DNA from: a virus
Lineage: Duplodnaviria; Heunggongvirae; Uroviricota; Caudoviricetes
Virus record (IMG/VR): IMGVR_UViG_2711768037_000005
Span: 1-64,000 of that record
Reading direction: 5' to 3' (one strand)
DNA length: 64,000 bases
Position 1 is the first letter of the stretch, and every line of letters begins with the position of its first letter. Shown one piece after another: positions 1,754 to 47,373 of the stretch. Position numbers and translations under genes: made by a program. The notes beneath the pieces are model-generated. The model was not told the DNA's origin. It searched no databases and saw nothing but the letters and a program-made list of their open reading frames with translations.

Positions 1754-2137
1754 ATGCTGAACGAAAAACGTTCTATACAAACAATTCGCGATTGCACGAG
1801 TGTTATCGCAACTCATGTGCTGAATAAGCGCAAACTTGAGGTGCGTAAACTTAACAACGATGCGACTGCGCCAAAAGACACTCGCTTCATCGTAACTTTC
1901 AAAGACGATGTTGAGAATGCTGGTGCCAGTGTAAAACCGTTGGCTGAAGCGATTTTCCTGAACGATCGTGTTCGTTTCATTGTGAAGCCAGCAAAACAAT
2001 ACCCTGAATTAGCACGGTTTAGTGACCAATTCTCTGAAATTATTGAGAGTGCAATTCGCCGCTTTCTTAATACACATGGTAGCATTGTCAGCAATACAAC
2101 TGCTGATGGTACTGCTCTAAGATGGCACCTACACTAG
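1754..2137 (+). CDS. hypothetical protein
   Basis: ORF track; no recognisable motif. Confidence 0.4.
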   Translation: MLNEKRSIQTIRDCTSVIATHVLNKRKLEVRKLNNDATAPKDTRFIVTFKDDVENAGASVKPLAEAIFLNDRVRFIVKPAKQYPELARFSDQFSEIIESAIRRFLNTHGSIVSNTTADGTALRWHLH

Positions 2138-2874
2138 AACGCACATACTCTAAAAATCTTTATGAGTTTCCTCACCGTGGGGAAACTCGCGTTTCACGTT
2201 TTGGCTACCTCATCAACGAAGCATCGCTTTTCAAAATATCCGAAATAACCATTATCGAGCCTGATGATGATATCTGTCTGTATATCCTGATGGAGAAAGT
2301 TGGAGCACGAGATCAGGGTGAACTGATGGACTTCATTCTGGACAGAGGCGAAGATGGAATGTCTGATTCGGACATTATTCAAGCAATTCTGCGTTCCGAC
2401 ATGCTCGATCAGAGTAGAAACACGATAGCAGGCAGAATTGCCTTGCGTGAATACACATTCATCGAGGATGGGGTAGAGATTGACTGCTATCAGATTGCAG
2501 GTGTTGAGACAGAAAGAGCAATAAGGCAAAGGGGACTATGCAACCTCACGTATCGCTTCCTCCTTCATTGGTACGAACATCTTGTCTGTGATTACAATCA
2601 GACCATTCCTGGCGCAAAAATCTGGGCCGGTCCATTAATGCGAACAGGTGATGTAAGAATTTACAACGCAAAAACTGAGATGTTCGAGGATGTGTTAGGC
2701 GAATATGGGATGGGAAAAGAAACCGGCTTTTTGCCGTGGAACAGAGGATTGTTACTTGATCCAGAATTAAGCTCTTGGTTTCCAAATAAGGTGCAAGTTA
2801 ACGTTGAGAAATTTATCGTACTTATCATCTCCCGCAAAACAAGAACCCCAGTTGGTTTATATCTAAAAGATTAA
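2122..2874 (+). CDS. hypothetical protein
   Basis: ORF track; followed by an intrinsic terminator. Confidence 0.45.
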   Translation: MAPTLERTYSKNLYEFPHRGETRVSRFGYLINEASLFKISEITIIEPDDDICLYILMEKVGARDQGELMDFILDRGEDGMSDSDIIQAILRSDMLDQSRNTIAGRIALREYTFIEDGVEIDCYQIAGVETERAIRQRGLCNLTYRFLLHWYEHLVCDYNQTIPGAKIWAGPLMRTGDVRIYNAKTEMFEDVLGEYGMGKETGFLPWNRGLLLDPELSSWFPNKVQVNVEKFIVLIISRKTRTPVGLYLKD

Positions 2875-2879
2875 CAATT

Positions 2880-2903
2880 AGGCGACTTCGGTCGCCTTTT
2901 TTG
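2880..2903 (+). terminator. rho-independent terminator
   Basis: Hairpin AGGCGACTTCGGTCGCCT followed by TTTTTT. Confidence 0.5.
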
Positions 2904-3050
2904 TTAACAGCCATTGATTCTCGCCTAAAAATTCTAAGGCAGCACCAACCATTTAACCTTTACACAGCAGCCGTAGGCATTTAGGCTATATCACATATAA
3001 GAAAACAAGTTGTTTCAGACAATAATAATAGACGCAAAGGGAACTCTCCA

Positions 3051-3719
3051 ATGACCAAGATCTTTGTGGTTGGCGGCACAAAGGGCGGGCCTGGCAAATC
3101 CACCGTTGCCCAGCAAATTGCCGTTTGCCTGAAAGTCAAAAAGAAGAAGAAGGTTTATATTACCGATATAGATATTCAGCGCACGACAACGAGCTGGTGT
3201 GAAGACCGTCGACAGAACGAAAACCTTGAGCTGATTCCTTTTGCATATGTTCAGGATGACATCATTAAGCATCTAAAATCGCTTCAGGGTAGAGCTGAGT
3301 TTGTAGTGGTAGATGCTGGTGGCTTCGACTCCGAAATTCAGCGACAAGCGATGCTGATGGCTGACGTTATCATTATCCCGCTGCGTCCTAAGCGTCGTGA
3401 TTTGAAATCTTTACGTGACATCGATCCTATTATCGACAATGTTCGCAATGTAAACGATAAAGTGAAGGTCCGTGCGGTCATGAACCAGTGCCCGGCTTTG
3501 CCATCACAAGTGTCTCGCATTCTGGCGGCTAAAGAGATTGTCGAGACGTTTGGCATCGAGCCTGCGCCTGTCAATCTATATAACCGCAACGTCTACGATG
3601 ATGCGGAAGAGTCTGGTCGTTCTATCTTTGAAATGACCGGTAGCGAGCGCGACAAAAAGGCGGAAGCCGAGTTTGAAGAATTTGTAGATTATCTATTGAG
3701 TCTGGAGGAAGAAGAATAA
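3051..3719 (+). CDS. parA: ParA/MinD-family partition ATPase (small ParA type)
   Basis: Deviant Walker A GGTKGGPGKST at N-terminus; 222 aa; stop overlaps start of a small downstream gene. Confidence 0.75.
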   Translation: MTKIFVVGGTKGGPGKSTVAQQIAVCLKVKKKKKVYITDIDIQRTTTSWCEDRRQNENLELIPFAYVQDDIIKHLKSLQGRAEFVVVDAGGFDSEIQRQAMLMADVIIIPLRPKRRDLKSLRDIDPIIDNVRNVNDKVKVRAVMNQCPALPSQVSRILAAKEIVETFGIEPAPVNLYNRNVYDDAEESGRSIFEMTGSERDKKAEAEFEEFVDYLLSLEEEE

Positions 3720-4078
3720 TGTCCATGAAAATGGGTGACCTAGCAAAGCGCAAAGAACCAGATGCACTGGCCAAGAACACAACTCCTTTGCGCCAACCAG
3801 TCAGACCACAGGGACGCCCGACTCGTGGCAAAGAGAAAATTAAAAGCCGCACAATGTCGCTGGAGGACGAATACTTTGAACTTCTGGAAATGATGAAGTG
3901 TATCCCTCGCTTCGAGAAGTTCACCCGTTCTGATGTGATTCGCGCAGCCATTTTCCATCTGGCAGAGAAGTCACCGCAGGAAATCGAGGACATTGTGAAA
4001 CTTAACGAGGCGATCACAGCTGCCGATGTAACGATGCGTACCGATGAAATCAAGCGAGAACTCATGAAAAAAGGCTGA
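3719..4078 (+). CDS. small ribbon-helix-helix-like partner protein (ParG/ParB-like centromere binder), putative
   Basis: Translationally coupled to parA (TAATG overlap); 119 aa with basic N-terminus and RHH-like segment MSLEDEYFELLEMMK. Confidence 0.4.
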   Translation: MSMKMGDLAKRKEPDALAKNTTPLRQPVRPQGRPTRGKEKIKSRTMSLEDEYFELLEMMKCIPRFEKFTRSDVIRAAIFHLAEKSPQEIEDIVKLNEAITAADVTMRTDEIKRELMKKG

Positions 4079-4108
4079 CAACTTCCGGTCTGGCAGCTTC
4101 AATCAGAA

Positions 4109-4166
4109 CCTGTTTCTGTATATAAATAATAAGTAACTTATTATTTATACGGAAGCAGGTCTTTTA
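4109..4166. terminator. large AT-rich hairpin with T-run; likely bidirectional terminator
   Basis: CCTGTTTCTGTATATAAAT ... ATTTATACGGAAGCAGG inverted repeat then TCTTTT; near-identical element at 50821-50893. Confidence 0.45.
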
Positions 4167-4267
4167 AAAGAAACCCACCAGAACAACTCCCTTCCGTTTT
4201 CACTTCCAAAAACTGACACCAGTCGCTATCATCCGCTCATTGCAATAAGTAAGTAACAACCTACCTG

Positions 4268-5017
4268 GTGAGCCACATGAGCCAAATCTTTTTCGATACC
4301 ATCGACAACGACCAGTACGACTTCATGACAGAGTGGAATACCGCTGTTATGGACAAGTGGGTCGCTGAAAACATTGGTTTGTCGCGCTGTAAAGACGAGG
4401 CTGAACTCTTCGAGACGAAGTGGTTTGATTACCGCGACATGCATCCTCTGATGGCCACCTGTCTTTTTACGGAGGCATACAAACGTCAGTACTCAAATAT
4501 CATGCTGACGCACGGTCGTGAACACTTTGAAACAGCTCCGTTCACCACCGGGTTAAAACGCCTGCCTTATCAGGAGTTGTCGACTGCTAATAAAACGTCG
4601 CTATGGAAAGCACGCCAGTTTGCGGATCGCTATTGCTGCTCATACGACTACTTTATCTCCACCGTTCTTTCCGCAGCTGCACGACGGCTGTGGGACAAGC
4701 TGCCGCGCCCACAGCATTTATGGCAGCCAGAGCTGGTTGAGATATTCGAAGAGAAATTAGCCAGACGCGCAACAACACGTCTAGATGATTCTCTGATTAG
4801 CTTTAAGCATATGGGAGACATGCAGTTCAACCCGATTCAGGAAAGCTATTTTGAGTGGATTCTGGAGCGTTTGCGCACTATCCCTCGCAGCAAGCGCATA
4901 CGCGCAATTTTCTCCGCTATCTGGTTAATGGAAATCGTTCCAGAACGCCTTATTTCCGCCCACTTTCCAGAAGAACTGGAAGAAGCACGGCGGTTTATTG
5001 ATCCCCTATCTAATTAA
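4268..5017 (+). CDS. hypothetical protein (position suggests a helicase-associated factor)
   Basis: ORF track; immediately upstream of the helicase gene. Confidence 0.45.
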   Translation: MSHMSQIFFDTIDNDQYDFMTEWNTAVMDKWVAENIGLSRCKDEAELFETKWFDYRDMHPLMATCLFTEAYKRQYSNIMLTHGREHFETAPFTTGLKRLPYQELSTANKTSLWKARQFADRYCCSYDYFISTVLSAAARRLWDKLPRPQHLWQPELVEIFEEKLARRATTRLDDSLISFKHMGDMQFNPIQESYFEWILERLRTIPRSKRIRAIFSAIWLMEIVPERLISAHFPEELEEARRFIDPLSN

Positions 5018-5060
5018 CTAATGCTAGAAAACAATTTGTTTAAAAAACAAAGGAAAGCAC

Positions 5061-6401
5061 ATGACAGAACTTTGCCATACAGGACGCGGGCTGTCCGAAG
5101 AATTTGATGAAGATTTTCAGAACAGATTGACGGCCTATTTTTGTCGTGATCACGAGTTTCTTACTCGTGCGGGAGATCTTGTTGTGCCTAGCCAATTTGC
5201 CAATGCGGCCAATGCCATATTGGTTAATATGGTTTCGGGCTATTATCGTATGTACAAGAGCGCGCCCTCTTCATCTGCAATTCTGGATATGCTTAAGCGT
5301 GCGAAACGCGATAAGACTATCCGTGAGGAACTATTCGCCGATGTTGTTGCTGCGTTTAAGCGCATTCTTGCAGAAAAATTGTCCGATACCTCGTACATGG
5401 TTGACCAGGTATCAACCTTCGCAAAAAGCGTAGCGTTTGATGATGCTCTGATTAAGGCTGCTGAACTGAAAGAGAAAGGCGACTTTCAGGGGGCGATGGC
5501 AATCATGGCCAAGGTTCAGCAGATTGGATCGAACGAAGCGACCGGAATCTATGACTACTACACCTCCGCAAGTGAGCGATTGAAAGCGCGTGAATATGAG
5601 GCTTCAGAGGAGTATGTGCCAAACAGCATTACAACTGGACTCCCTCTGCTCGATAGGTTGCTGTACCAAAAAGGCTGGGCGAAGCGTGAAATGGTGCTCT
5701 TCATGGGGTTCGCTAAATCCGGTAAATCGACCGCAATGGGTGAGTTTTCCATAAACGCAACGCTTGCTGGCTACAATGTTCTGTATCTCTCGCTGGAGGT
5801 TCACACCAACATTTTGTCCGACCGTTTTGATGCAAGATTGTCGGAGACGGAAATGTCCAAGTTGGTGGAACGGCGCGATGAAGTTCATCGTAAGTTGGCA
5901 GAGTTGGGAGCCTCTAAGGGGATTGGTAGTTTGTGGGTTGTTGAGCGTCCGTCAGGAAGTATGTCACCGGCAGATCTGGACCGTATGCTTAACAGTATGA
6001 AAGCCAATGGCATGGTGCCTGACATGGTTGTTGTCGACTACGCAGATTTGATGCGTGCCAGTTATGACCTTCGTGATGATCGCGCCAACATTCGTAGTAT
6101 CTACACCGATTTACGTGCTCTTTATGACAAGCATAACGTTGCTGGGATCACGGCATCGCAGACAAACCGTGAAGGTGGCGCGTCAGAAGTTGCCACAATG
6201 ATGCACGCTGCTGACAACATCGAAAAAGTACGTATTGCTGACCTGGTAATAACGATCAATAAAACCGAAGAAGAAGAAGCGAAAGGAGAGGCTCGTCTCT
6301 ACTTTGCCGGTTCACGTAACCAGCAGGGAGGGATCAGCATTCGCGTTAAACAAAACCTCGAACAAATGCGCTTCATTCAGCGAATCTTAGACGTTACCTA
6401 A
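5061..6401 (+). CDS. DnaB-family replicative DNA helicase
   Basis: Walker A GFAKSGKST and RecA-like C-terminal domain; 446 aa; followed by primase. Confidence 0.6.
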   Translation: MTELCHTGRGLSEEFDEDFQNRLTAYFCRDHEFLTRAGDLVVPSQFANAANAILVNMVSGYYRMYKSAPSSSAILDMLKRAKRDKTIREELFADVVAAFKRILAEKLSDTSYMVDQVSTFAKSVAFDDALIKAAELKEKGDFQGAMAIMAKVQQIGSNEATGIYDYYTSASERLKAREYEASEEYVPNSITTGLPLLDRLLYQKGWAKREMVLFMGFAKSGKSTAMGEFSINATLAGYNVLYLSLEVHTNILSDRFDARLSETEMSKLVERRDEVHRKLAELGASKGIGSLWVVERPSGSMSPADLDRMLNSMKANGMVPDMVVVDYADLMRASYDLRDDRANIRSIYTDLRALYDKHNVAGITASQTNREGGASEVATMMHAADNIEKVRIADLVITINKTEEEEAKGEARLYFAGSRNQQGGISIRVKQNLEQMRFIQRILDVT

Positions 6402-10555: not shown

Positions 10556-10899
10556 ACGGGAGAAGGAAACGCTTCATGAAATCAGTAAGTGGCCGGAGTT
10601 CCCTGAGTACTGGAAGCCTAAAACGCGAGCTTAGTTAGAGCGTTTAGGGTTGGTTGCAAACGTTTCTGAAACGTGGTGTTCGGCCAACTACCAGTTAACT
10701 GATAAAGGGAAAGTATTGCTACAGCAATTAGTAGAATCAGGAGCGTTAAAATGATTCCATATATCTCATTAGCTTTTATGGGGCGCTTCCTTATCGGCTT
10801 CGGCATCTGTCGTGACTTAATTAAGCAGGAACTTAAAACCAAAACACTGTGCATCGGAAAGCGTGTGTATCGGGTAGTTCATGAAACAAAGGTTAGAAA

Positions 10900-11190
10900 A
10901 TGAGCAATTTAACTTCTTGGGACCGGTGGTTGGCCACCTATTTCTTAGCGGCCGGAGTCGCATTCGCCTTTTACGTAGGTCAGTTAGTCGTAAAACTGTT
11001 GCTGATTAAATTTGCTAGTCATAAACGTATCGATGATGGTCTGTGGCGTCTTGGCACCCTGGTGGAAACTCGCTACGGGCAACTTAAGGAGAACGAAACC
11101 ATTACTATCCAAGCGAAACGATTCACTGCCACCATCACAAGAACACCTAGTCGTAGAGTGGCCTTGATCAAAAAAGTTACAACCGAATAA
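10900..11190 (+). CDS. hypothetical membrane protein
   Basis: ORF track; TM-like WLATYFLAAGVAFAFYVGQLVV. Confidence 0.3.
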   Translation: MSNLTSWDRWLATYFLAAGVAFAFYVGQLVVKLLLIKFASHKRIDDGLWRLGTLVETRYGQLKENETITIQAKRFTATITRTPSRRVALIKKVTTE

Positions 11191-11957
11191 AAACATATCG
11201 ATAAGTGTTTACTTACTTATCCTTTGTGTATAAGATGACTTTGTTTTCGTTGAGACGCGACTGTTTGAACTTAAATACAAGTGCAAACGAAGAAGTCTAT
11301 CTGGCAGTAGCCTAATAAGCCAAACACCAGCGAGGTCAGTTTCCAGCCTCGTTACCGAAATGGGACACACTGAGCGAGTGTGATTGCAGAACGCAGGAGG
11401 GAACATGAGTGTTCCCTCCGATGAAGTAACAAAATGGGCGGTCGGTATATTTTCAACTCCATATGACTCCCGGATTCTTAGCCACTGACCGCCCATTCTG
11501 TTACGTCATTTTGTTCAATTATGTCGTTTATACTGGGTTAAAAAGCGGCGACGTAGCCCGGCTGGTATGGTTAGCCAGCACACAACGTTGAGGCCATTAC
11601 ATTTTTATCAATTCTAAGGTTCTATTCACAGAGATACCGGCGAGCGTTGATATGTAACATGTTGGGCAAACATTTAATCGGAGTAGTGGCCTCAACATTG
11701 TGAAGACGGGATTGTTGTGTAGGTTTAACCACTGTTGCCTGTTTTCACAACAAATGATTCCATACATCACATTGTATAAATTACAAAGTAGGTGCTGTCC
11801 TCAGAAACATCATCTACTTAAAGATTTAGCCTTCTATTGAGCGAAGTCGAAAGCGTCTGGCACTAACGAAAAGTGCAAGTAGCGGTGCGTTTCCTGGCAG
11901 AAACTAACACCGCCGCGATTAGCACTGTTGAGTAATAAATACTGTCAGTGCTGAATT

Positions 11958-12029
11958 GATGGTGTAGCTCAGCGGTAGAGCAGTTGGCTGTTAACCAACT
12001 GGTCGGTGGTTCGAATCCACCCACCATCG
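11958..12029 (+). tRNA. tRNA-Asn (anticodon GTT)
   Basis: Acceptor GATGGTG/CACCATC, D-arm TAGCTCAGCGGTAGAGCA, anticodon loop CTGTTAA, T-loop GGTGGTTCGAATCCACC, CCA encoded. Confidence 0.8.
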
Positions 12030-12037
12030 CCAATTTA

Positions 12038-12121
12038 GGGGAGTTAGTCCGTAGAGGTAGCGGTGTAGACTGTAAATCTACTGTCATGGCGACTCGGGTG
12101 GTTCGACTCCATCACTCCCCA
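12038..12121 (+). tRNA. tRNA-Tyr (anticodon GTA), long variable arm
   Basis: Acceptor GGGGAGT/ACTCCCC, anticodon stem-loop GTAGA-CTGTAAA-TCTAC, long variable arm, T-loop TTCGACT, CCA encoded. Confidence 0.75.
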
Positions 12122-12128
12122 CCAAATT

Positions 12129-12201
12129 GCCGGTTTAGCTCAGTTGGTAGAGCGGCTGCCTTGTAAGCAGGATGTCAGCGGTTCGAGTCCGTTAACCGGC
12201 A
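12129..12201 (+). tRNA. tRNA-Thr (anticodon TGT)
   Basis: Acceptor GCCGGTT/AACCGGC, D-arm TAGCTCAGTTGGTAGAGC, anticodon loop CTTGTAA, T-loop GGTTCGAGTCC, CCA encoded. Confidence 0.75.
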
Positions 12202-12695
12202 CCAACATAATATTGAGAACATTGGCGTAACGGGTTCATATCCCAATTTATGAATAAATGTTGCGTTGCCGCGTGACAACCAGTGTTCTCAACATTGTGG
12301 TGAATGCACAGGCTGATGTGCCGCAACTACAGTAGTGCGCGCTTTGCGGGGCTTGCTACAACCCTGTGTCGGAGATCAGCGCCGACCATCACAATTTGGC
12401 TCTCTTGCAACAGCATAACGCTGAAATATGTCCAATCTGGTGCGGCCTGTTCACCCGCCGTTAGCTCCACGAAACGGAGCGCACAACAGGAAAGAGCATT
12501 GAGAACCGCCGACTGCCCTGTTTGAAGCGTAAGTCCGTGCAAACGTCATACAGTGCTCTTTTCGTTGTGGTTGATGCGCAGACTGATGCGCGGAAAGAAA
12601 TGCCCCAGCGACACACGAGGCGAGTTCACACACTGCATTGCAGTCAGTAGCCGGGGTCGCTAAGCCGGAGATCAGTACCGGTAACCACAACAATT

Positions 12696-12779
12696 GGAGA
12701 GTAGGGAGCATGGTGCTCAAGCGGTCTTGAAAGCCGTCCCATTGCGCAAGCGATGATGGTTCGATTCCATTACTCTCCG
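12696..12779 (+). tRNA. tRNA-Ser (anticodon TGA), type II, putative
   Basis: Acceptor GGAGAGT/ACTCTCC, anticodon loop CTTGAAA, long variable arm, T-loop GGTTCGATTCC, CCA encoded; D-arm is atypical so the call is tentative. Confidence 0.55.
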
Positions 12780-13008
12780 CCAGACACAGCGTTGAGCGGT
12801 TTGGCCTTTTAATCAACCAGATTAAGACTCCGCTAACATAAACCAAACCGCTCAACGCTGTGTGTGAAATTCCACATATTTTATACATATCCATTTACGC
12901 AATTTTTTATTGTTCTTTCATACATTACTCTTATATTTTATTGTCGTTTTTTAACTGCTAAAATCGTATCGATTTTAGCTAAAGTTTATCGTTAAAGGAG
13001 TAACGATT

Positions 13009-14922
13009 ATGTCATTCATTGACTATGATATTTTGTCAGCATCATCAAGCAAAGAGCTTAGAGAAAAACTTGCGGAGAAAATCGCAGAGGGTTGGCAACC
13101 TTTCGAGTCACCAAACATTGTTGAACCAAGTAAGGGCGGACCAAATGCGTACAATCAAGCAATTGTGCGATCTGGTGATTTATCACAATTGCCCACACCG
13201 GTATCAAATGAAGATGAAGAGCCTGACTATTATTATGTAGTTACTATCGCAGGTCAATCTAACTCAATGTCATACGGCGAAGGACTGCCTATGCCAAAAA
13301 CTTTTGATCGGCCACATCCTCGCGTAAAACAGTTAGCTCGACGCAGCAATATTAAACCTGGTGGTTTTGCCTGTAAGTACAATGAAATAATTCCCGCTGA
13401 TCACTGTCTTCATGATGTACAAGACATGACTAAATTAAAGCATCCAAAAGCAAACGACTCTGAATATGGATGTGTTGGTCAGGGATTACACATTGGCAAA
13501 AAACTATTACCATTCATTCCAGCAAACGCAGGTATTTTGCTTGTTCCTTGCGGAAGAGGTGGTTCTGGTTTCACTGTTACAGGCTCTGAAGGCCAATATT
13601 ATGAAGAGTCAGGTGCAATCGAATCATCTTTAAAATGGGGATTAAATACTCCTTTGTATAAGGATATTGTAGCCAGAACAAAAGCGGCCTTAAGTAAAAA
13701 CAAAAAGAATGTATTTCTTGGTGTTGTCTGGATGCAAGGCGAAGCTGATTTGGCAACTGGCAAGCACTCGCAGCATAACGAACTGTTCCTCAAGATGGTC
13801 GAAGGTTTCAGAAAAGAGCTATCTCAATACGACGCACAATGTGTTTTCGGAAGTGCTGCAAATGTACCCTGGATTTGTGGCGATACGACCTACTGGTGGA
13901 AAAACAAATATCCAGAACAGTACGAAATTGTTTATGGTGGTTATAAGGGAAAAACCGCACAAGCAATTTATTTCGTTCCATTCATGAAAGATGAGAATGA
14001 TAATAACGTATTAACCAATAGCCCTACAGATGATCCAGACATCACATCTATTGGCTATTATGGTTCCGGTCATCGCAAGGATAATAAAACATGGACTTCC
14101 GAGAGTAGAGAGAGTCATTTTGGTTCATGGCAGCGACGCGGAATAATATCTGATCGTCTCGCAACTGCGCTCCTTGAACATTCAGCGAAATCATCTGCTT
14201 TTGTGAATGGCGTTACAGGTGAGATTATTAAACAAGAACAACCTACTCAACCTAAAAATGACAACATTGTCACAACTCCAACCCCGCGAACGGTTATTTC
14301 CTTAACTGGAGCAGGTGGTGATGTCGCTACTGAACAAGGATGGACTGTAACTGGTGCAAATATTCAGTCAGTTGAAAACGGAAAAGCAATTGCTTTAACT
14401 AAAGCGGTTTCTAACAAAACCTGGACGATCAGTAAAACTACTGACATAGCACAGGCTCTTCTTGAGAATGGAGGTAAATTACTTTGTAAGTTTAAATTAT
14501 CTGGAAACCCCGATCCCAAAAAAGCCAAGTTTGGCTTTGGTATATATTACAAAACCAGTAAACCTGTTGCTGACGATATATCATTCGACGGTACTGGGAG
14601 CCTGTTTCTGGCTAACTTCTTCCTTCAAACAATTGGAGGCAAGTTGAACATTATGATGCACAAGACAGGCAATAATCAAAATGTTCAGATAGACTCATAT
14701 GGTGACTACGACAACAATTGGCACACTCTTGAGTTGCAATATGAGAAAGGCACAGGAACTGTAATTCCCGTTCTCGATGGCAAGGCGGGAGGTAAATTCA
14801 AGCTGGTTAAAGACAATATTGCTCTTGGTGATGAGGCTTTTGTTTTAACAGATATAACAAACAACCAAACTCATGATCTTGCTATCGAAACACTTACCAT
14901 TAGCATCAACAACCCAACCTAA
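13009..14922 (+). CDS. SGNH/SASA-type carbohydrate esterase domain fused to a C-terminal beta-sandwich (lectin-like) domain
   Basis: GQSNSMSYGEG signature of sialate O-acetylesterase-like domains; Thr/Gly-rich beta-strand-like C-terminal half; gene visibly AT-rich; lies between the tRNA island and the recombinase. Confidence 0.5.
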   Translation: MSFIDYDILSASSSKELREKLAEKIAEGWQPFESPNIVEPSKGGPNAYNQAIVRSGDLSQLPTPVSNEDEEPDYYYVVTIAGQSNSMSYGEGLPMPKTFDRPHPRVKQLARRSNIKPGGFACKYNEIIPADHCLHDVQDMTKLKHPKANDSEYGCVGQGLHIGKKLLPFIPANAGILLVPCGRGGSGFTVTGSEGQYYEESGAIESSLKWGLNTPLYKDIVARTKAALSKNKKNVFLGVVWMQGEADLATGKHSQHNELFLKMVEGFRKELSQYDAQCVFGSAANVPWICGDTTYWWKNKYPEQYEIVYGGYKGKTAQAIYFVPFMKDENDNNVLTNSPTDDPDITSIGYYGSGHRKDNKTWTSESRESHFGSWQRRGIISDRLATALLEHSAKSSAFVNGVTGEIIKQEQPTQPKNDNIVTTPTPRTVISLTGAGGDVATEQGWTVTGANIQSVENGKAIALTKAVSNKTWTISKTTDIAQALLENGGKLLCKFKLSGNPDPKKAKFGFGIYYKTSKPVADDISFDGTGSLFLANFFLQTIGGKLNIMMHKTGNNQNVQIDSYGDYDNNWHTLELQYEKGTGTVIPVLDGKAGGKFKLVKDNIALGDEAFVLTDITNNQTHDLAIETLTISINNPT

Positions 14923-14933
14923 CACAAAGTAAC

Positions 14934-14960
14934 AGCCAGGCATGAAATTGCCTGGTTTCA
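14934..14960 (+). terminator. putative intrinsic terminator
   Basis: Hairpin CCAGGCATGAAATTGCCTGG followed by TTT. Confidence 0.35.
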
Positions 14961-15130
14961 ACATCGAATCAAATATTTAAAACTAGCTCTACAGAAAAAA
15001 ATGATTCCATACTCCTTAGGTATGGAATCATTTCCCGCATGAAAGATTTTAGCTTGATTCCAAAAGAATCAATGCCTAATATACTGGTTACTTATACAGG
15101 TAATCAGCGTAACTAGGTGAATACCAATAA

Positions 15131-16234
15131 ATGAAAAATAGCTTTGACAGAGCACGCGCAGCAGAAAACACCTCAAAAGAGGCAATTGAGTATCTCGAAA
15201 GAGCATCTCAAATGCAGGCCATTATGATCTCACAGATCAACAATAACATGATATTCTCGGACGCATTCATGTTATTCACTCGCTTATCTCTGCTGATAAC
15301 AAGACGTCGCCCAGAGATCGCTGTTCACTGTATTTTGATACATGTTTTACCGCACATTGCCGATATAAAAGTAAGTGACATTAATCGGTTCATGGTGAAC
15401 CAACTGGTAAACCCGTTAATACTGGATGGCAAAATTGTCATGGGCCGCCGCGTTTTCTCTCTGATGAAGCAGTTCCTTAGCTGGTGCGCCTTCCAGGGGA
15501 TGATAGACGTGTCACCGTTAAACGATATGTCACTAAACAAAGTTGCCGGTGGCGCAAAGCCCACACCTCGCGAGCGTAAGCTGACCGACGCAGAGGTATG
15601 GGTGTTCTGGAATATATGGGACTACTTCAATGTGTGCGCTGGTACAAAATGGGCGGCTAGGCTGTGTCTTGTATCAGCAAGACGACCTGACGAAGTACTG
15701 CGGGCTAAAAAAAGTGAGTTCAATCTTAAGCGTGGGGTTTGGAATCAAGGCAAGAGAAACAAGTCAGCACGTGAGCATTCGCTGCCTTTAAGCACATTAA
15801 TGCGCACATGCATTGAAGAGTTGTTCGAATACGGTAAAGACAGCCAGTGGCTCGTGCCTTCAAATAAAAAAATCGGGAAAGACCTTCCTATGTCTAAAGT
15901 GGCAATAGCACAGGCATTACGTCGTATTCTTGAACGGCCAGAACTGATGGAGCTTGAGCCATTTACACCCCGAGATTTGCGCCGTACTGCGCGTAGTTAC
16001 TTCCCAGCATTAGGCATAAGCCAGGAGGTATCACGCAAAATCATGAACCACAGTCTTGAGGGGATAGATCGGGTCTACGACCGGCACGATTATATGGACG
16101 AGATGCGAGACGCCTTAGAAAGTTTCTCGACGTACATCGCATCAATCGTAGAGCAACCGGATTTAGACGAAATTGACCACAAATTCAAGGGAGATCGTCT
16201 ATCAACAGAGCTTATTCGTGTAAATTTTTCATAG
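15131..16234 (+). CDS. tyrosine site-specific recombinase (integrase or dimer-resolution recombinase)
   Basis: C-terminal catalytic pattern: ARRPDEV (Arg), HSLEG (His), LRRTARS (Arg), YDRHDY (Tyr). Confidence 0.75.
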   Translation: MKNSFDRARAAENTSKEAIEYLERASQMQAIMISQINNNMIFSDAFMLFTRLSLLITRRRPEIAVHCILIHVLPHIADIKVSDINRFMVNQLVNPLILDGKIVMGRRVFSLMKQFLSWCAFQGMIDVSPLNDMSLNKVAGGAKPTPRERKLTDAEVWVFWNIWDYFNVCAGTKWAARLCLVSARRPDEVLRAKKSEFNLKRGVWNQGKRNKSAREHSLPLSTLMRTCIEELFEYGKDSQWLVPSNKKIGKDLPMSKVAIAQALRRILERPELMELEPFTPRDLRRTARSYFPALGISQEVSRKIMNHSLEGIDRVYDRHDYMDEMRDALESFSTYIASIVEQPDLDEIDHKFKGDRLSTELIRVNFS

Positions 16235-20794: not shown

Positions 20795-23700
20795 ATGAAG
20801 GCACTGATGGTTCGAACTGACTTCTCACTTGGGGAGTCGGCTTTAAAAGCAGAAAACGCGGTGAAGATTGCCAGAGAAGCTGGCTACACCGCTGTAATTT
20901 CAGCAGATAGCATGAATATTGCGAGTGTTATTCCACTACAACGTGCCGCTGGTGACGACATGGCGGTTATTTGTGGTGTGAAACTAAACATCGTTGATGA
21001 TCCCACATACGAGCACCGAGCTAAACTTGCTAAAGAATCTAAGAGGTGTATGGAATCATTAGAGCGAGGACGCAACTACTCGTTTACCGCTCTAATTAAA
21101 AATGAGCAAGGATATCGCGACATCTGCGAACTAATGACGGTGGCCAACACACGAGAACAGTTCTACTTTGTACCGCGTCTCTCGCTCGAACAGTTGGTTT
21201 CTACATATGCCAAAGGCAACATCATCCTGCTCACTTCCGACATCGGTAGCGTGTTCCAACGCAACGATTTTGCAAAAATCATAAGCACACTGATTACAGC
21301 GGGTGGAAAAGACAACTTCTATAGTGTGGTTTATCCGCACCCTACCCCATTCTACGACCAGATTAACGTCCGGGCGATGAAAGTTGCCAGCGCACTGAAA
21401 ATAGAGCCAGTAGCGTTTTATCCCGCTTATTACGAATCGATCGACGATGCTGACATTAAAGACATTGCGCACATGGTTACGAACAACATCAAAATCGACC
21501 AGCCGCATCGTCTGCGTATCCCCCACCAGCGAGATAACGCCATCAATGGTCGCCGCCATCTCCTTGAGGCGCTTAAAACCTTCTCCGTTCGCATGGATGT
21601 GCCGGTAACAGCTGCAATGGCCTCAACAACGCAGGATACCATTATCGATGCCTGCACATGGCGCTGGCATGAATTGCCGCCAGCACTGCCAAAGATGGCA
21701 GACGACGAGCCTGCAACGCTGATGAAACTGGCTGTTGCAGGGCTGCGTAAACGTCTTACCACAAAAGAGTTTGGCTACACACCACCTGCTTCTGAGAACA
21801 GGGTTTATGTTGAGCGGCTAAAGTACGAAATGGACACGCTGACTCGCCTGGGATTCTGTGGTTACTTCCTGATGGTGCGCGATCTGATGAATCATAGTCG
21901 TGAAACTGGCATTCCCGTTGGGCCTGGTCGTGGTTCCTCTGCCGGTTCTCTGGTGGCGTGGTGCATAGGCATAACCAACGTCGACCCAATCCGTCACGGT
22001 CTTCTGTTTGAGCGTTTCATCAACCCTGAGCGTCTCGACTTGCCGGATGCGGACTTGGACTTCAGCCAGGCACGTCGCCATGAGGTGATCGAGTATCTGA
22101 ATGAACGCTACGGCGAAGATTACGTTGCAGGCATTCCGAACTTCACCTACCTGGGCGCCGCCTCTGCACTACGTGACACCGCTCGTATTTATGGTGTGGA
22201 GTCCGCAGATATGGCGGTATCAAAAGAACTGAAGAACGTCGAGGATGATAGCCTTCCATTGGAAGAACTGCGCGAACAACTGGCAAGTCTCGACAAATAC
22301 GCAACAAAATATCCTGATGCATTCAATGCAGCCTGCAAGTTACAAAGCCTTATGCGTGGCTTTGGTAGACATGCGGCAGGGATGATCGTAGCAGGTGTTC
22401 CTCTGACAGAACGTACACCGGTTGAGCGCCGTGGTGACGCGCGTTGTATCGCATTTGACAAGCGTTACTGCGAGGCTATGGGCCTAATTAAACTGGACGT
22501 GCTTGGTCTGGCAACTCTCGATTTGCTCGATAGTGCAAAACGCTACATCAAAGAGAGTACCGGGGAAGACATCAATCTTGATGCCATTTCTCTTGAAGAT
22601 CGCAAGGTGCTGGATGGTTTTGCTGCTGGGTACACTCAAGGTGTTTTCCAGCTTGAATCAGGCCCAATGCGCAAGCTGCTTAAAGATTTAGGTGGTGGAA
22701 TTGAGCCAATGAGCTTTAAAACGGTCGTCGCTACAACTGCGCTCTTCCGGCCGGGGCCAATTCAATCAGGCATGTTGGATGACTATGTTTCTGTCGCCAA
22801 AGGCTTTATGACGCCGGAATCATTACACCCCGTTCTTGATGAACTTACCGCGGAAACAAATGGCGTGATTCTCTATCAGGAACAGACGATGAACGCGACT
22901 CGATTGCTTGCCGGCTTCACAATGGCTGAAGCTGACGGTGTGCGTTCCGCAATCGGTAAGAAGAACATGGAAAAAATGAAGAGCATGGGCGAGAAGTTCA
23001 TCGTTCAGGCTCAAGCTGGCTGGATAGACGTTGAGCTGGAAGATGGCACTACACAGCGCATTCACCGTGCGGAACATTTTAAATGCGAAGACGGAACTCT
23101 GAAAACTGTCGAAGAGGCACTTGAGTACGGCGCAAAACTACCTATAAACGCAGTACGCGTTACAGCGTCACATCCAGGGCTATCAGAGATGAAAGCGAAG
23201 GAGATCTGGACCGCATTCGAAAAGAATGGTGCCTACCAGTTCAACAAATCACACTCTGTTGCTTACTCCTTAATCAGTTATCAATCTATGTGGTTGAAAA
23301 CTCATTATCCCGCAGAGTTTTTCGCTGCTGCTCTCACTATTCTTGGCGAAGATAAACACCAGGGGCTGGTTAAAGATGCGCTGACCTATGGTATTCGCGT
23401 ATTACCACCAGACGTTAACATGTCATCTAACCGAATCGAGATCCGCACGCTTGAAGATGGCAGCCAGGTGCTGTATGCGCCCTTCTCTGCTGTGAAAGGT
23501 TGTTCTGAGAATGGCTGCCAGGCCATCATGAGAGCACGAGAAAAAGTTGGCGGCAAATTCGAGTCACTGGCGCAATTCGAAGAAGCTGTCGAGAAACGTG
23601 CCTGTAATAGTCGAGTGCGCGAATCGCTGCAAAAAGTAGGGGCGTTTGCATCCATCGAGCCAGGTAGTCTGCCAGCAACTGATCCAGAGCGCCTACGCGA

Positions 23701-46486: not shown

Positions 46487-46900
46487 ATGGCAAGAGGTAT
46501 GTATGTCTTATGCGAAATTGAAGGTGTGCTGGCAAATGCCAGCCATCGTAAATCAGTATCTGACGCGGATGCAGGCCAGCTCATTGCCGGTGATGAACTC
46601 ATTTTCCCCACCAGCCGTATGTTGCGTGGTTTTGCTCGCTCAGGGGCTGAAGTGGTGCTTATCAGTAGCCGCTCTGAAACTCTTGAAGCGCCAACTAAAC
46701 GATGGCTGAAAGATTTTGGCGTTGATTATGACTGGCTTCATCTCGTACCGAATGGCACCAGTTATGAGAAGCATATTAAGCGCACATTAGCGGAGCATAA
46801 AGGCGATCTGCTTATCGCTGCGCTGGTGCACGATCCTCGACTCCGTGCCGCTTTAGCCGACTCTCACCATCGACCGGTCATCTATGAGGTGAGCAAATGA
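46487..46900 (+). CDS. hypothetical protein
   Basis: In-frame ATG at 46487 just after thyA stop (ORF track 46439); translationally coupled to DHFR gene. Confidence 0.3.
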   Translation: MARGMYVLCEIEGVLANASHRKSVSDADAGQLIAGDELIFPTSRMLRGFARSGAEVVLISSRSETLEAPTKRWLKDFGVDYDWLHLVPNGTSYEKHIKRTLAEHKGDLLIAALVHDPRLRAALADSHHRPVIYEVSK

Positions 46901-47373
46901 AGATGATCGCTGCTGTTGGCCGTAACTATGAGATCGGCATAGCGAATGAACTCCCCTGGCGTTGTTCTACCGATCTGAAGCTATTTAAGAGACTCACCAA
47001 AAACGCCACTGTCGTTATGGGGCGTAAAACGATGGAAAGTCTCAAACGCCCTCTTCCAGAGCGTCATAACCTCGTTTTGACGCGCTCTCATGGCTTTGTA
47101 CCAAATGGATTCTACCCTGCTGGTGTGGATGATGTGTTGCGATTACCAGAGCCTGTGTGGGTGATTGGCGGGGAACAAATTTACTCGCTATTCATGCCGC
47201 ATGTTGAAGAGATTTGGCTCTCCCACATCGGCGTTGATGTACCAAACGCCGATGCATTCTTCCCGGCAAGCATGATGCGTAACTTAGGCTTTGTGCCTGT
47301 TGAAACAGCTTATACCCAACGAGCCAGCGAGGAAGAGCCTGGCTTTTCGCAGATCGTATACAGAAGGTCGTAA
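46897..47373 (+). CDS. dihydrofolate reductase
   Basis: MIAAVGRNYEIGIANELPW and VVMGRKTMESLKRPLPER match the DHFR N-terminal fold; 158 aa; adjacent to thyA. Confidence 0.8.
   Translation: MKMIAAVGRNYEIGIANELPWRCSTDLKLFKRLTKNATVVMGRKTMESLKRPLPERHNLVLTRSHGFVPNGFYPAGVDDVLRLPEPVWVIGGEQIYSLFMPHVEEIWLSHIGVDVPNADAFFPASMMRNLGFVPVETAYTQRASEEEPGFSQIVYRRS

Follow-up and report, generated by a model that had tools for sequence, protein, structure and literature searches.

A NanS-p-like esterase gene as exchangeable cargo beside the integrase of an SSU5-like phage-plasmid

Introduction

A long AT-rich gene lodged between a tRNA island and an integrase gene raises two questions: what does its product do, and does the gene belong to the element or is it cargo that comes and goes? 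We addressed these questions for IMG/VR record IMGVR_UViG_2711768037_000005, a tailed-phage sequence (Caudoviricetes) of which positions 1 to 64,000 were analyzed. This stretch is called the window below, and coordinates refer to it unless another accession is given. The gene, here termed nanS-p-like, occupies 13009-14922 on the plus strand including the stop codon, starts with ATG and specifies a protein of 637 amino acids (aa). An initial annotation made from the DNA letters and their open reading frames (ORFs) had delineated the same ORF and had placed it between tRNA genes and a recombinase gene. This holds, with tRNA-Ser at 12696-12782 upstream and a tyrosine recombinase gene at 15131-16234 downstream.

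Domain organization and family assignment

By its sequence the gene encodes a NanS-p-type sialate O-acetylesterase of three domains, diverged yet intact. Since PHROG_143 covers the protein end to end (E = 3e-271) and more than 1500 homologues were found, 13009-14922 is not a chance ORF. Full-length homologues occur in 351 phage records, nearly all from Shiga toxin (Stx) phages, where they are annotated as NanS or SASA esterase. One GenBank record automatically annotates the gene itself as a 9-O-acetyl-N-acetylneuraminic acid deacetylase. A search of NCBIfam with the protein matched no family.

The N-terminal domain, DUF1737 (13009-13179, residues 1-57), was recognized by Pfam PF08410 at residues 6-54 with 28.6 bits against a cutoff of 24 and scored 83 bits with a family-specific hidden Markov model (HMM). 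It is followed by an SGNH type II or SASA esterase domain at 13222-14184 (residues 72-392). Pfam SASA covers residues 80-284 (44 bits, cutoff 24.8), and residues 67-390 are 54% identical to PDB entry 3pt5 (E = 1.2e-115), the crystal structure of the 9-O-acetyl-N-acetylneuraminic acid esterase NanS (YjhS) of E. coli. The C-terminal part at 14317-14919 (residues 437-637) is a lectin-like jelly roll and putative carbohydrate-binding module. Residues 485-600 match DUF6645 (Pfam PF20350, E = 1.4e-15) and residues 441-634 match PDB entry 6yp6, the C-terminal domain of NanS-p from phage phi24B (E = 1.5e-25). The three Pfam matches all exceed the curated cutoffs.

An AlphaFold2 model of moderate confidence, with a mean predicted local distance difference test (pLDDT) score of 69, was built from a shallow alignment of 30 sequences. 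It has a beta-alpha-beta-beta N-terminal domain (strands at residues 5-11, 30-38 and 47-54, helix at 14-26), an alpha/beta core and an all-beta C-terminal domain. The top Foldseek matches of the model were 3pt5 with a template modeling (TM) score of 0.75 and 6yp6 with a TM score of 0.88 and a root mean square deviation of 2.2 Å; lectin-type jelly rolls came next. The initial annotation had read the protein as an SGNH/SASA-type esterase fused to a C-terminal lectin-like beta-sandwich, and this fusion is borne out by the Pfam, PDB and Foldseek matches. Two of the checks that it had proposed, an HMM search for SASA and lectin domains and a structure prediction, returned SASA and DUF6645 in the first case and an esterase fold in the second. 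What it had missed was the third, N-terminal domain, and it had not recognized that the esterase belongs to a named and characterized family.

The motif GQSNSMSYGEG on which the initial annotation had relied is present at residues 82-92 (nucleotides, nt, 13252-13284). Within it lie two of the predicted catalytic residues, Gln83-Ser84 (nt 13255-13260); the third is His370 (nt 14116-14118). These residues correspond to Gln18, Ser19 and His301 of NanS and do not vary in alignments of 9, 31 and 30 homologues. The active site of NanS consists of Ser19, His301 and the oxyanion residue Gln18, without a catalytic Asp (PMC9063846, citing Rangarajan 2011). In the C-terminal domain, three of the four aromatic positions proposed to bind sugar in phi24B are still aromatic (F508, Y513 and F538), and the fourth is L606.

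An exchangeable cargo slot

The nanS-p-like gene is acquired, exchangeable cargo in a hypervariable slot that extends from tRNA-Ser to the integrase gene (12863-14998). This is directly supported, because close relatives hold entirely different genes between the same flanks. In pairwise comparisons with Cyrano and CMS-2020a SCU-107 the homology stops at 12862 and resumes at 14999/15000. The slot of Cyrano contains two hypothetical genes, one of them on the reverse strand, and a glutaredoxin gene.

The slot was further surveyed at 75 loci retrieved via the integrase, comprising 70 viral contigs and five genomes. It measures 0.8-4.1 kb, falls into at least 12 size classes and has mostly AT-rich contents with a GC fraction of 0.33-0.45. 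The esterase gene was found in the slot of one of the 70 viral contigs. Among the other occupants are glutaredoxin, a Phage_gp49_66 protein, an AbiGi abortive-infection protein and several 300-440-aa proteins of unknown kind. The slot resembles a hotspot for defense and moron genes, several of them uncharacterized candidates. One occupant of the Cyrano slot, CYRAN_43, is the top-expressed moron in the LF82 lysogen, at 723-fold over the prophage background (PMC9928086).

The AT-richness noted in the initial annotation was confirmed: the GC fraction is 0.408 for the ORF and 0.395 for the cassette, against a window mean of 0.456. This places the ORF within the lowest 3% of the 1914-bp segments of the window, although the regions at 49-50 kb and 54-56 kb are just as low. 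At third codon positions (GC3) the fraction is 0.32, compared to 0.40-0.51 in neighboring backbone genes of the phage-plasmid. The accompanying claim that the gene is acquired cargo stood up as well, by the swapping of contents between conserved flanks in Cyrano, CMS-2020a SCU-107 and the survey loci.

Lineage, divergence and selection

The nearest protein clusters are 98% (P0001, 127 members) and 89% (P0002) identical to the nanS-p-like protein, after which full-length identity drops to about 50% or less. The 89% allele occupies the same slot in another SSU5-like element (locus L004). Identity to the NanS-p proteins of Stx phages is 47-50% over the full length, with 26-44% in DUF1737, 60-65% in the esterase and 29-43% in the C-terminal domain. 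A neighbor-joining tree of the esterase domain, with NanS as the root, places the two alleles from phage-plasmids as sister to all sampled prophage alleles. The phage-plasmid alleles have a GC fraction of 0.41 and a GC3 of 0.32, against 0.55 and about 0.59 for the alleles of VT2-Sakai and YYZ-2008. Given the divergence, the position in the tree and the contrast in GC and GC3, recent copying of the gene from an E. coli prophage is rejected. Phage-plasmid NanS-p is instead an old and distinct branch with an unsampled source lineage. Scans of viral and metagenome contigs for the allele found no intermediate relatives and no donor lineage; the further copies that were retrieved, on one IMG/VR contig and three metagenome contigs, are all 98-99% identical and lie in the same context.

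All three domains are under purifying selection. Compared with the 89% identical allele, the ratio of nonsynonymous to synonymous divergence (dN/dS) is 0.08 at a dS of 0.68. By domain it is 0.065 for DUF1737, 0.04 for the esterase and 0.09 for the C-terminal domain, and the two linkers have values of 0.12 and 0.26. The overall ratio of 0.08 rules out that the gene is a pseudogene or a decaying passenger.

The host element

The window is assigned, on sequence grounds, to an SSU5-like phage-plasmid of the p09EL50 type and not to a lambdoid prophage. The DNA around the gene matches SSU5, Cyrano (pLF82) and SSU5-like elements of Klebsiella, and the sole close phage match of the gene is the 109-kb Escherichia phage CMS-2020a. 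In PLSDB, eight plasmids carry the gene at 98.7-99.8% identity. They measure 66-110 kb (seven of them 107-110 kb) and come from E. coli or Shigella sonnei, the latter being the source of five. Their classification is non-mobilizable throughout, and p09EL50 of E. coli O104:H4 strain 2009EL-2050 is one of them. Among 5,426 complete E. coli genomes the gene was found in four, two of which are O104:H4; every copy is on a plasmid and none is chromosomal. The annotation of the near-identical plasmid NZ_CP027369 lists a RepB replicon, ParB-family partition genes and a block of replication and nucleotide-metabolism genes including dnaE, nrdAB, thyA and a CobT-like gene. A complete siphovirus module for head and tail is listed as well and falls outside the window.

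Proposed function

The nanS-p-like protein is probably a phage-borne sialate O-acetylesterase that acts on acetylated sialic acids and mucin glycans and, as swappable cargo of a phage-plasmid, benefits sibling lysogens. In this proposal the substrate, the host benefit and the release by lysis are inferred from characterized NanS-p homologues; the present analysis itself supplies the family membership and architecture, the conserved catalytic residues, the cargo status, the evidence of purifying selection and the lack of a signal peptide. In the SGNH type II domain Ser84 would serve as the nucleophile, His370 as the base and Gln83 together with a backbone Gly as the oxyanion hole, without a catalytic Asp as in NanS. 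The enzyme would hydrolyze the O-acetyl esters of sialic acids, Neu5,9Ac2 for example, and of acetylated mucin O-glycans, and the C-terminal jelly roll would direct it to glycans. No signal peptide or transmembrane segment was found in the protein (maximum Kyte-Doolittle value over 15 residues in the first 50, 0.2). Because an export signal is lacking, the extracellular substrate would be met only after phage-induced lysis of a subpopulation or via particles. De-acetylated sialic acid would then become usable by sialidases and the E. coli Nan pathway, and sibling lysogens in mucus would gain. Characterized NanS-p enzymes cleave Neu5,9Ac2 as well as mono-, di- and tri-O-acetylated mucin glycans and support the growth of lysogens, with activity demonstrated for prophage alleles of EDL933 and O104:H4 (PMC8065619).

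Several observations weigh against this proposal. The identity to characterized esterase domains is just 60-65%, and blocks adjacent to the active site are unlike those of all other sampled members: PCGRGGSGFTVTG replaces PCCRGGSAFT-TG, QGEAD replaces QGEFD, and block IV reads RESH where other NanS-p proteins have RSSH or RASH. Due to these substitutions the substrate preference may differ. In the model the active-site loops are of low confidence, with pLDDT below 50 at residues 83-98, 184-191 and 359-377. No clear promoter was found, as a simple scan upstream of the gene gave no strong plus-strand sigma-70 consensus, and the gene lies beside integrase and repressor genes, whereas its Stx-phage homologues belong to a Q-dependent late operon. 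The AT-richness could also invite silencing by H-NS. Finally, the nutritional gain is perhaps redundant in some hosts; O104:H4, for one, already has several prophage nanS-p genes (PMC8065619).

Possible display on the capsid

A second possibility, compatible with a mucin-directed esterase and tentatively held, is that DUF1737 docks the protein on the hexons of the SSU5-like capsid. The particle would then carry a lectin and esterase module that binds and cleaves, and so modulates contact with O-acetylated sialoglycans in mucus. The suggestion comes from phage phi24B, whose NanS-p, gp84, was reported to be a capsid decoration protein with a DUF1737 hexamer at the centers of selected hexons. A loop bearing a Tyr42 'tooth' is reported to insert between helices of the major capsid protein (MCP), and the catalytic part to be cleaved off later (preprint 10.64898/2026.04.10.717836). 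The DUF1737 domain studied here, a homologue of that anchor, retains the beta-alpha-beta-beta layout in the model. Within the phage-plasmid lineage it is as strongly constrained as the catalytic domain (dN/dS 0.065, against 0.12-0.26 in the linkers), which argues that it still has some role there. It is also the sole DUF1737 of the element, as a profile search of the remaining element and of Cyrano for a separate DUF1737 gene gave no match besides the esterase. NanS-p occurs in three unrelated capsid backgrounds, namely the podovirus Traversvirus, the siphovirus Pankowvirus with a fused MCP of 645 aa, and the SSU5-like siphovirus. The anchor loop differs among them in length and sequence (PSKGGPNAY here, TAGYGAEF in VT2-Sakai and TPYTL in YYZ-2008), a pattern that a loop adapted to its capsid would produce. 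Moreover, for a protein without a signal peptide the sole exits from the cell are particle association and lysis.

Other observations make such docking doubtful. Tyr42 of phi24B aligns to Gly44 here, the anchor loop is two residues longer, and the nearest tyrosine (Y48) aligns to Phe46. The SSP motifs proposed for processing in phi24B are absent. The partner capsid of phi24B is a T=9 podovirus shell of a Phage_capsid_3 MCP, whereas the relatives of the present element are siphoviruses. Its MCP (WP_106889102, 306 aa) has no detectable sequence similarity to the phi24B/VT2-Sakai type (BLASTP against the VT2-Sakai MCP, E = 0.5) and belongs to a different Pfam family. The gene lies away from the head module, beside the integrase and repressor genes. 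The co-variation of loop and capsid rests on three cases, and the phi24B work has appeared as a preprint. Cyrano has no esterase gene and still makes siphovirus particles (PMC9928086). The esterase is therefore dispensable for particle formation in the SSU5-like family, and any decoration would be optional.

It is conceivable, if rather unlikely, that DUF1737 serves as a transferable adaptor for capsid docking, with a beta2-beta3 loop adjusted to each capsid lineage, and that it here places a 'receptor-destroying' module of esterase and lectin on a siphovirus head with no relation to the phi24B head. If true, NanS-p would be a widespread phage analogue of the viral hemagglutinin-esterases, serving movement through O-acetylated gut mucus and exchangeable between phage families as a single-gene cassette. 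The phi24B capsid result leaves the esterase identity intact and possibly moves the biology from lysogenic conversion only towards a virion-displayed enzyme. The initial annotation had named a proven role as a virion tail component as a ground for giving up its reading. Nothing ties the protein to the tail; it is with the capsid that the phi24B homologue has been associated.

Host-surface and tail hypotheses

The initial annotation had suggested deacetylation of host surface polysaccharide, leading to lysogenic conversion or superinfection exclusion. In this scenario the enzyme would de-O-acetylate a sialic-acid-containing O-antigen or capsule of the bacterium itself, and thereby change the serotype, exclude superinfecting phages or, on particles, aid adsorption or release. 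We regard this as improbable. Half of the four complete E. coli carrier genomes are O104:H4, whose antigen is presumably O-acetylated on its sialic acid. Conversely, five of the eight PLSDB carrier plasmids come from Shigella sonnei, the O-antigen of which is not known to contain sialic acid. Without a signal peptide or membrane anchor the enzyme cannot reach the outer surface of a living lysogen, which makes host-surface deacetylation unlikely as a lysogen function. Action on such surfaces from a particle is conceivable. The O104 antigen does contain internal sialic acid (PMC9631793), and de-O-acetylation of lipopolysaccharide by NanS-p has been raised as a possibility in a review, but the demonstrated NanS-p substrates are host-derived sialoglycans (PMC8065619). 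A PADLOC search gave no meaningful defense match, only a partial one to SspE (13 bits, E = 0.004).

Least probable of all is a receptor-binding or depolymerase enzyme displaced from the tail module, the other suggestion of the initial annotation: SGNH esterase domains occur in some phage tailspikes and a weak partial match to the PHROG 'tail protein' family phrog_25867 was found (E = 2.7e-4, residues 170-256 only), but the N-terminus is DUF1737 and no tail adaptor, the model has no trimeric beta-helix or coiled coil, and a complete tail module with its own tip fiber and side-fiber genes lies elsewhere on the element, not adjacent to the gene. Relatives without the gene form particles (PMC9928086), and the phi24B homologue was placed on the capsid, not the tail (preprint 10.64898/2026.04.10.717836).

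Expression signals, slot borders and neighboring genes

A cassette-specific AT-rich leader (12863-13008, plus strand) precedes the nanS-p-like gene and contains a good ribosome binding site, AAAGGAG at 12994-13000, 8 nt ahead of the ATG. The final 85 nt or so of the leader are 87% conserved in the 89% identical allele of locus L004. A palindrome with 10-bp arms just 5' of the ribosome binding site was considered as an operator and dropped, as it is not conserved in that allele. Beyond the gene, 14 nt past the stop codon, the GC-rich hairpin CCAGGCA-TGAAAT-TGCCTGG (14936-14955) forms a weak terminator-like element, which the terminator scan assigned to the minus strand; on the plus strand only TTTC follows it.

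On the left the slot is flanked by a tRNA island with genes for Asn, Tyr, Thr and Ser. The last of these, tRNA-Ser(TGA) (12696-12782, plus strand, ARAGORN), is the conserved left flank, shared with Cyrano and SCU-107 up to 12862. An inverted repeat at 12781-12866, with 24-nt arms of 96% complementarity and a 38-nt loop, begins within the end of tRNA-Ser and stops at the left border of the cassette. The repeat is conserved in relatives; it may act as a hairpin for processing or termination, or mark a boundary of recombination. A scan of 11000-15300 with Rfam gave the four tRNAs and sub-threshold noise, and nothing more. The sub-threshold matches include tmRNA hits at 11191-11366 on the plus strand (17-21 bits, E = 0.02-0.3), probably noise or a degenerate tRNA-like element. 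The island varies among close relatives, as tRNA-Tyr (12038-12124) is absent from Cyrano. An interval of about 440 bp between tRNA-Thr and tRNA-Ser (12224-12660) is not shared with Cyrano and SCU-107, and has no Rfam match and no convincing ORF.

The right border is a perfect 14-7-14 palindrome at 14999-15033, about 100 bp upstream of the integrase gene, with the sequence AAATGATTCCATAC-TCCTTAG-GTATGGAATCATTT. In 22 relatives, among them elements from Kluyvera, Yersinia pestis and Buttiauxella, the 12-13-nt arms (ATGATTCCATAC) do not vary, whereas the 7-bp spacer depends on the lineage (TCCTTAG, CTACTAT, CTATTAA, TTAATAG or TTGTAAG). The full palindrome occurs once in the window and lone copies of the arm lie at 11754-11765, 21048-21059 and 10751-10762, giving five arm matches where 0.36 are expected. 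On the minus strand the palindrome is followed by a run of seven T. It is a candidate that could be a core or arm site of the recombinase, an operator or other regulator site, or a minus-strand terminator. The idea that cassettes are exchanged strictly by site-specific recombination at this palindrome is weakened by the L004 allele, in which some 30 bp of the 'common' sequence to the left of the palindrome are retained; the right junction is therefore not always at the edge of the site. The conserved right flank is the tyrosine recombinase or integrase gene (15131-16234, plus strand; Pfam Phage_integrase, E = 4.5e-10; PHROG_1 integrase). A divergently transcribed gene for a helix-turn-helix repressor-like protein also neighbors the nanS-p-like gene.

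Some further observations concern the slot in other elements and the remainder of this one. At loci L014-L075, in the slot at about locus positions 1900-5870 upstream of the integrase gene, minus-strand genes with a GC fraction of 0.33-0.41 encode proteins of 300-440 aa that have no Pfam or PADLOC match, several with a hydrophobic N-terminus. The slot of locus L019 holds an AbiGi-family abortive-infection gene with two unknown partners. In the window, a 158-aa dihydrofolate reductase ORF (46897-47373, plus strand) lies amid thymidylate synthase and nrdAB genes. Its counterpart on NZ_CP027369 bears the annotation trimethoprim-resistant DfrA51, a resistance gene that has lately been reported from phage-plasmids (PMC12217456). 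An ORF annotated as a 779-aa LAGLIDADG-family homing endonuclease, possibly an intein- or intron-type insertion, is found inside the replication block at 88081-90420 of NZ_CP027369, which corresponds approximately to 26-28 kb of the window. Outside the window, the side-fiber (gp53-like) and tape-measure genes of NZ_CP027369 (locus L007; 8692-10555 and 17805-22375) are annotated as frameshifted pseudogenes. This could mean that particle production is impaired in that copy, unless the frameshifts stem from sequencing errors.

Comparison with known systems

Work on NanS-p has so far dealt almost entirely with its occurrence alongside Shiga toxin genes in lambdoid prophages. In the searchable literature we found no discussion of NanS-p on a phage-plasmid, and the original paper on p09EL50 does not mention the gene. 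The present results add a NanS-p branch on phage-plasmids of E. coli, including O104:H4, and of Shigella sonnei, situated in a defense-like or moron hotspot. A mucus-related fitness gene would thereby join the known cargo of phage-plasmids, alongside resistance genes. The gene also offers a natural test case for the docking of DUF1737 on capsids unrelated to that of phi24B and for the substrate preference of diverged NanS-p alleles, and its interest would rise if DUF1737 proves to dock on the SSU5-like capsid.

The location agrees with the hotspot of Cyrano/pLF82 (CYRAN_41-43), which has tRNA-Ser and the hairpin on the left, the palindrome and integrase on the right, and AT-rich variable contents. 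Other variants of the slot mostly combine glutaredoxin with a minus-strand gene of unknown or defense-like type, whereas here a single plus-strand esterase gene replaces them all.

The closest known systems are the NanS-p proteins of Stx and other lambdoid phages (933W L0105/z1466, VT2-Sakai orf42 and phi24B vb_24B_21/gp84), which have the same order of DUF1737, SASA/SGNH type II domain and lectin-like jelly roll. They share the catalytic Gln-Ser and His without a catalytic Asp, are phage-borne, lack a signal peptide and are encoded downstream of a phage tRNA cluster. The family spans 611-658 aa, compared with 637 aa here. In VT2-Sakai and YYZ-2008, which were compared, nanS-p sits in a late operon with the order Q-tRNAs-stx-nanS-p-holin, whereas the present gene occupies an extrachromosomal slot by integrase and repressor genes. 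The late-operon location is a contextual habit of the NanS-p family that stands outside its molecular definition.

The chromosomal NanS (YjhS) of E. coli has a homologous SGNH type II domain with the same Ser, His and Gln residues in the active site. It is a single-domain protein of 326 aa without DUF1737 or the lectin-like domain, whereas the protein described here is plasmid-borne and has three domains in 637 aa. The NanS gene belongs to the chromosomal nanCMS sialic-acid operon.

The resemblance to the hemagglutinin-esterase fusion protein of influenza C virus and the hemagglutinin-esterases of coronaviruses and toroviruses is a functional analogy only. These are also virus-borne SGNH sialate O-acetylesterases combined with a lectin, and they bind and destroy receptors of O-acetylated sialic acid in mucus. 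Their fold, however, is SGNH type I, with the lectin placed inside the esterase (PMC9063846), and they are membrane glycoproteins that show no sequence relationship to NanS-p and have no DUF1737. Compared with all these systems, the molecular kind of the nanS-p-like protein is already known and well characterized; what is new is a deep-branching, AT-rich NanS-p lineage in the cargo hotspot of SSU5-like phage-plasmids.

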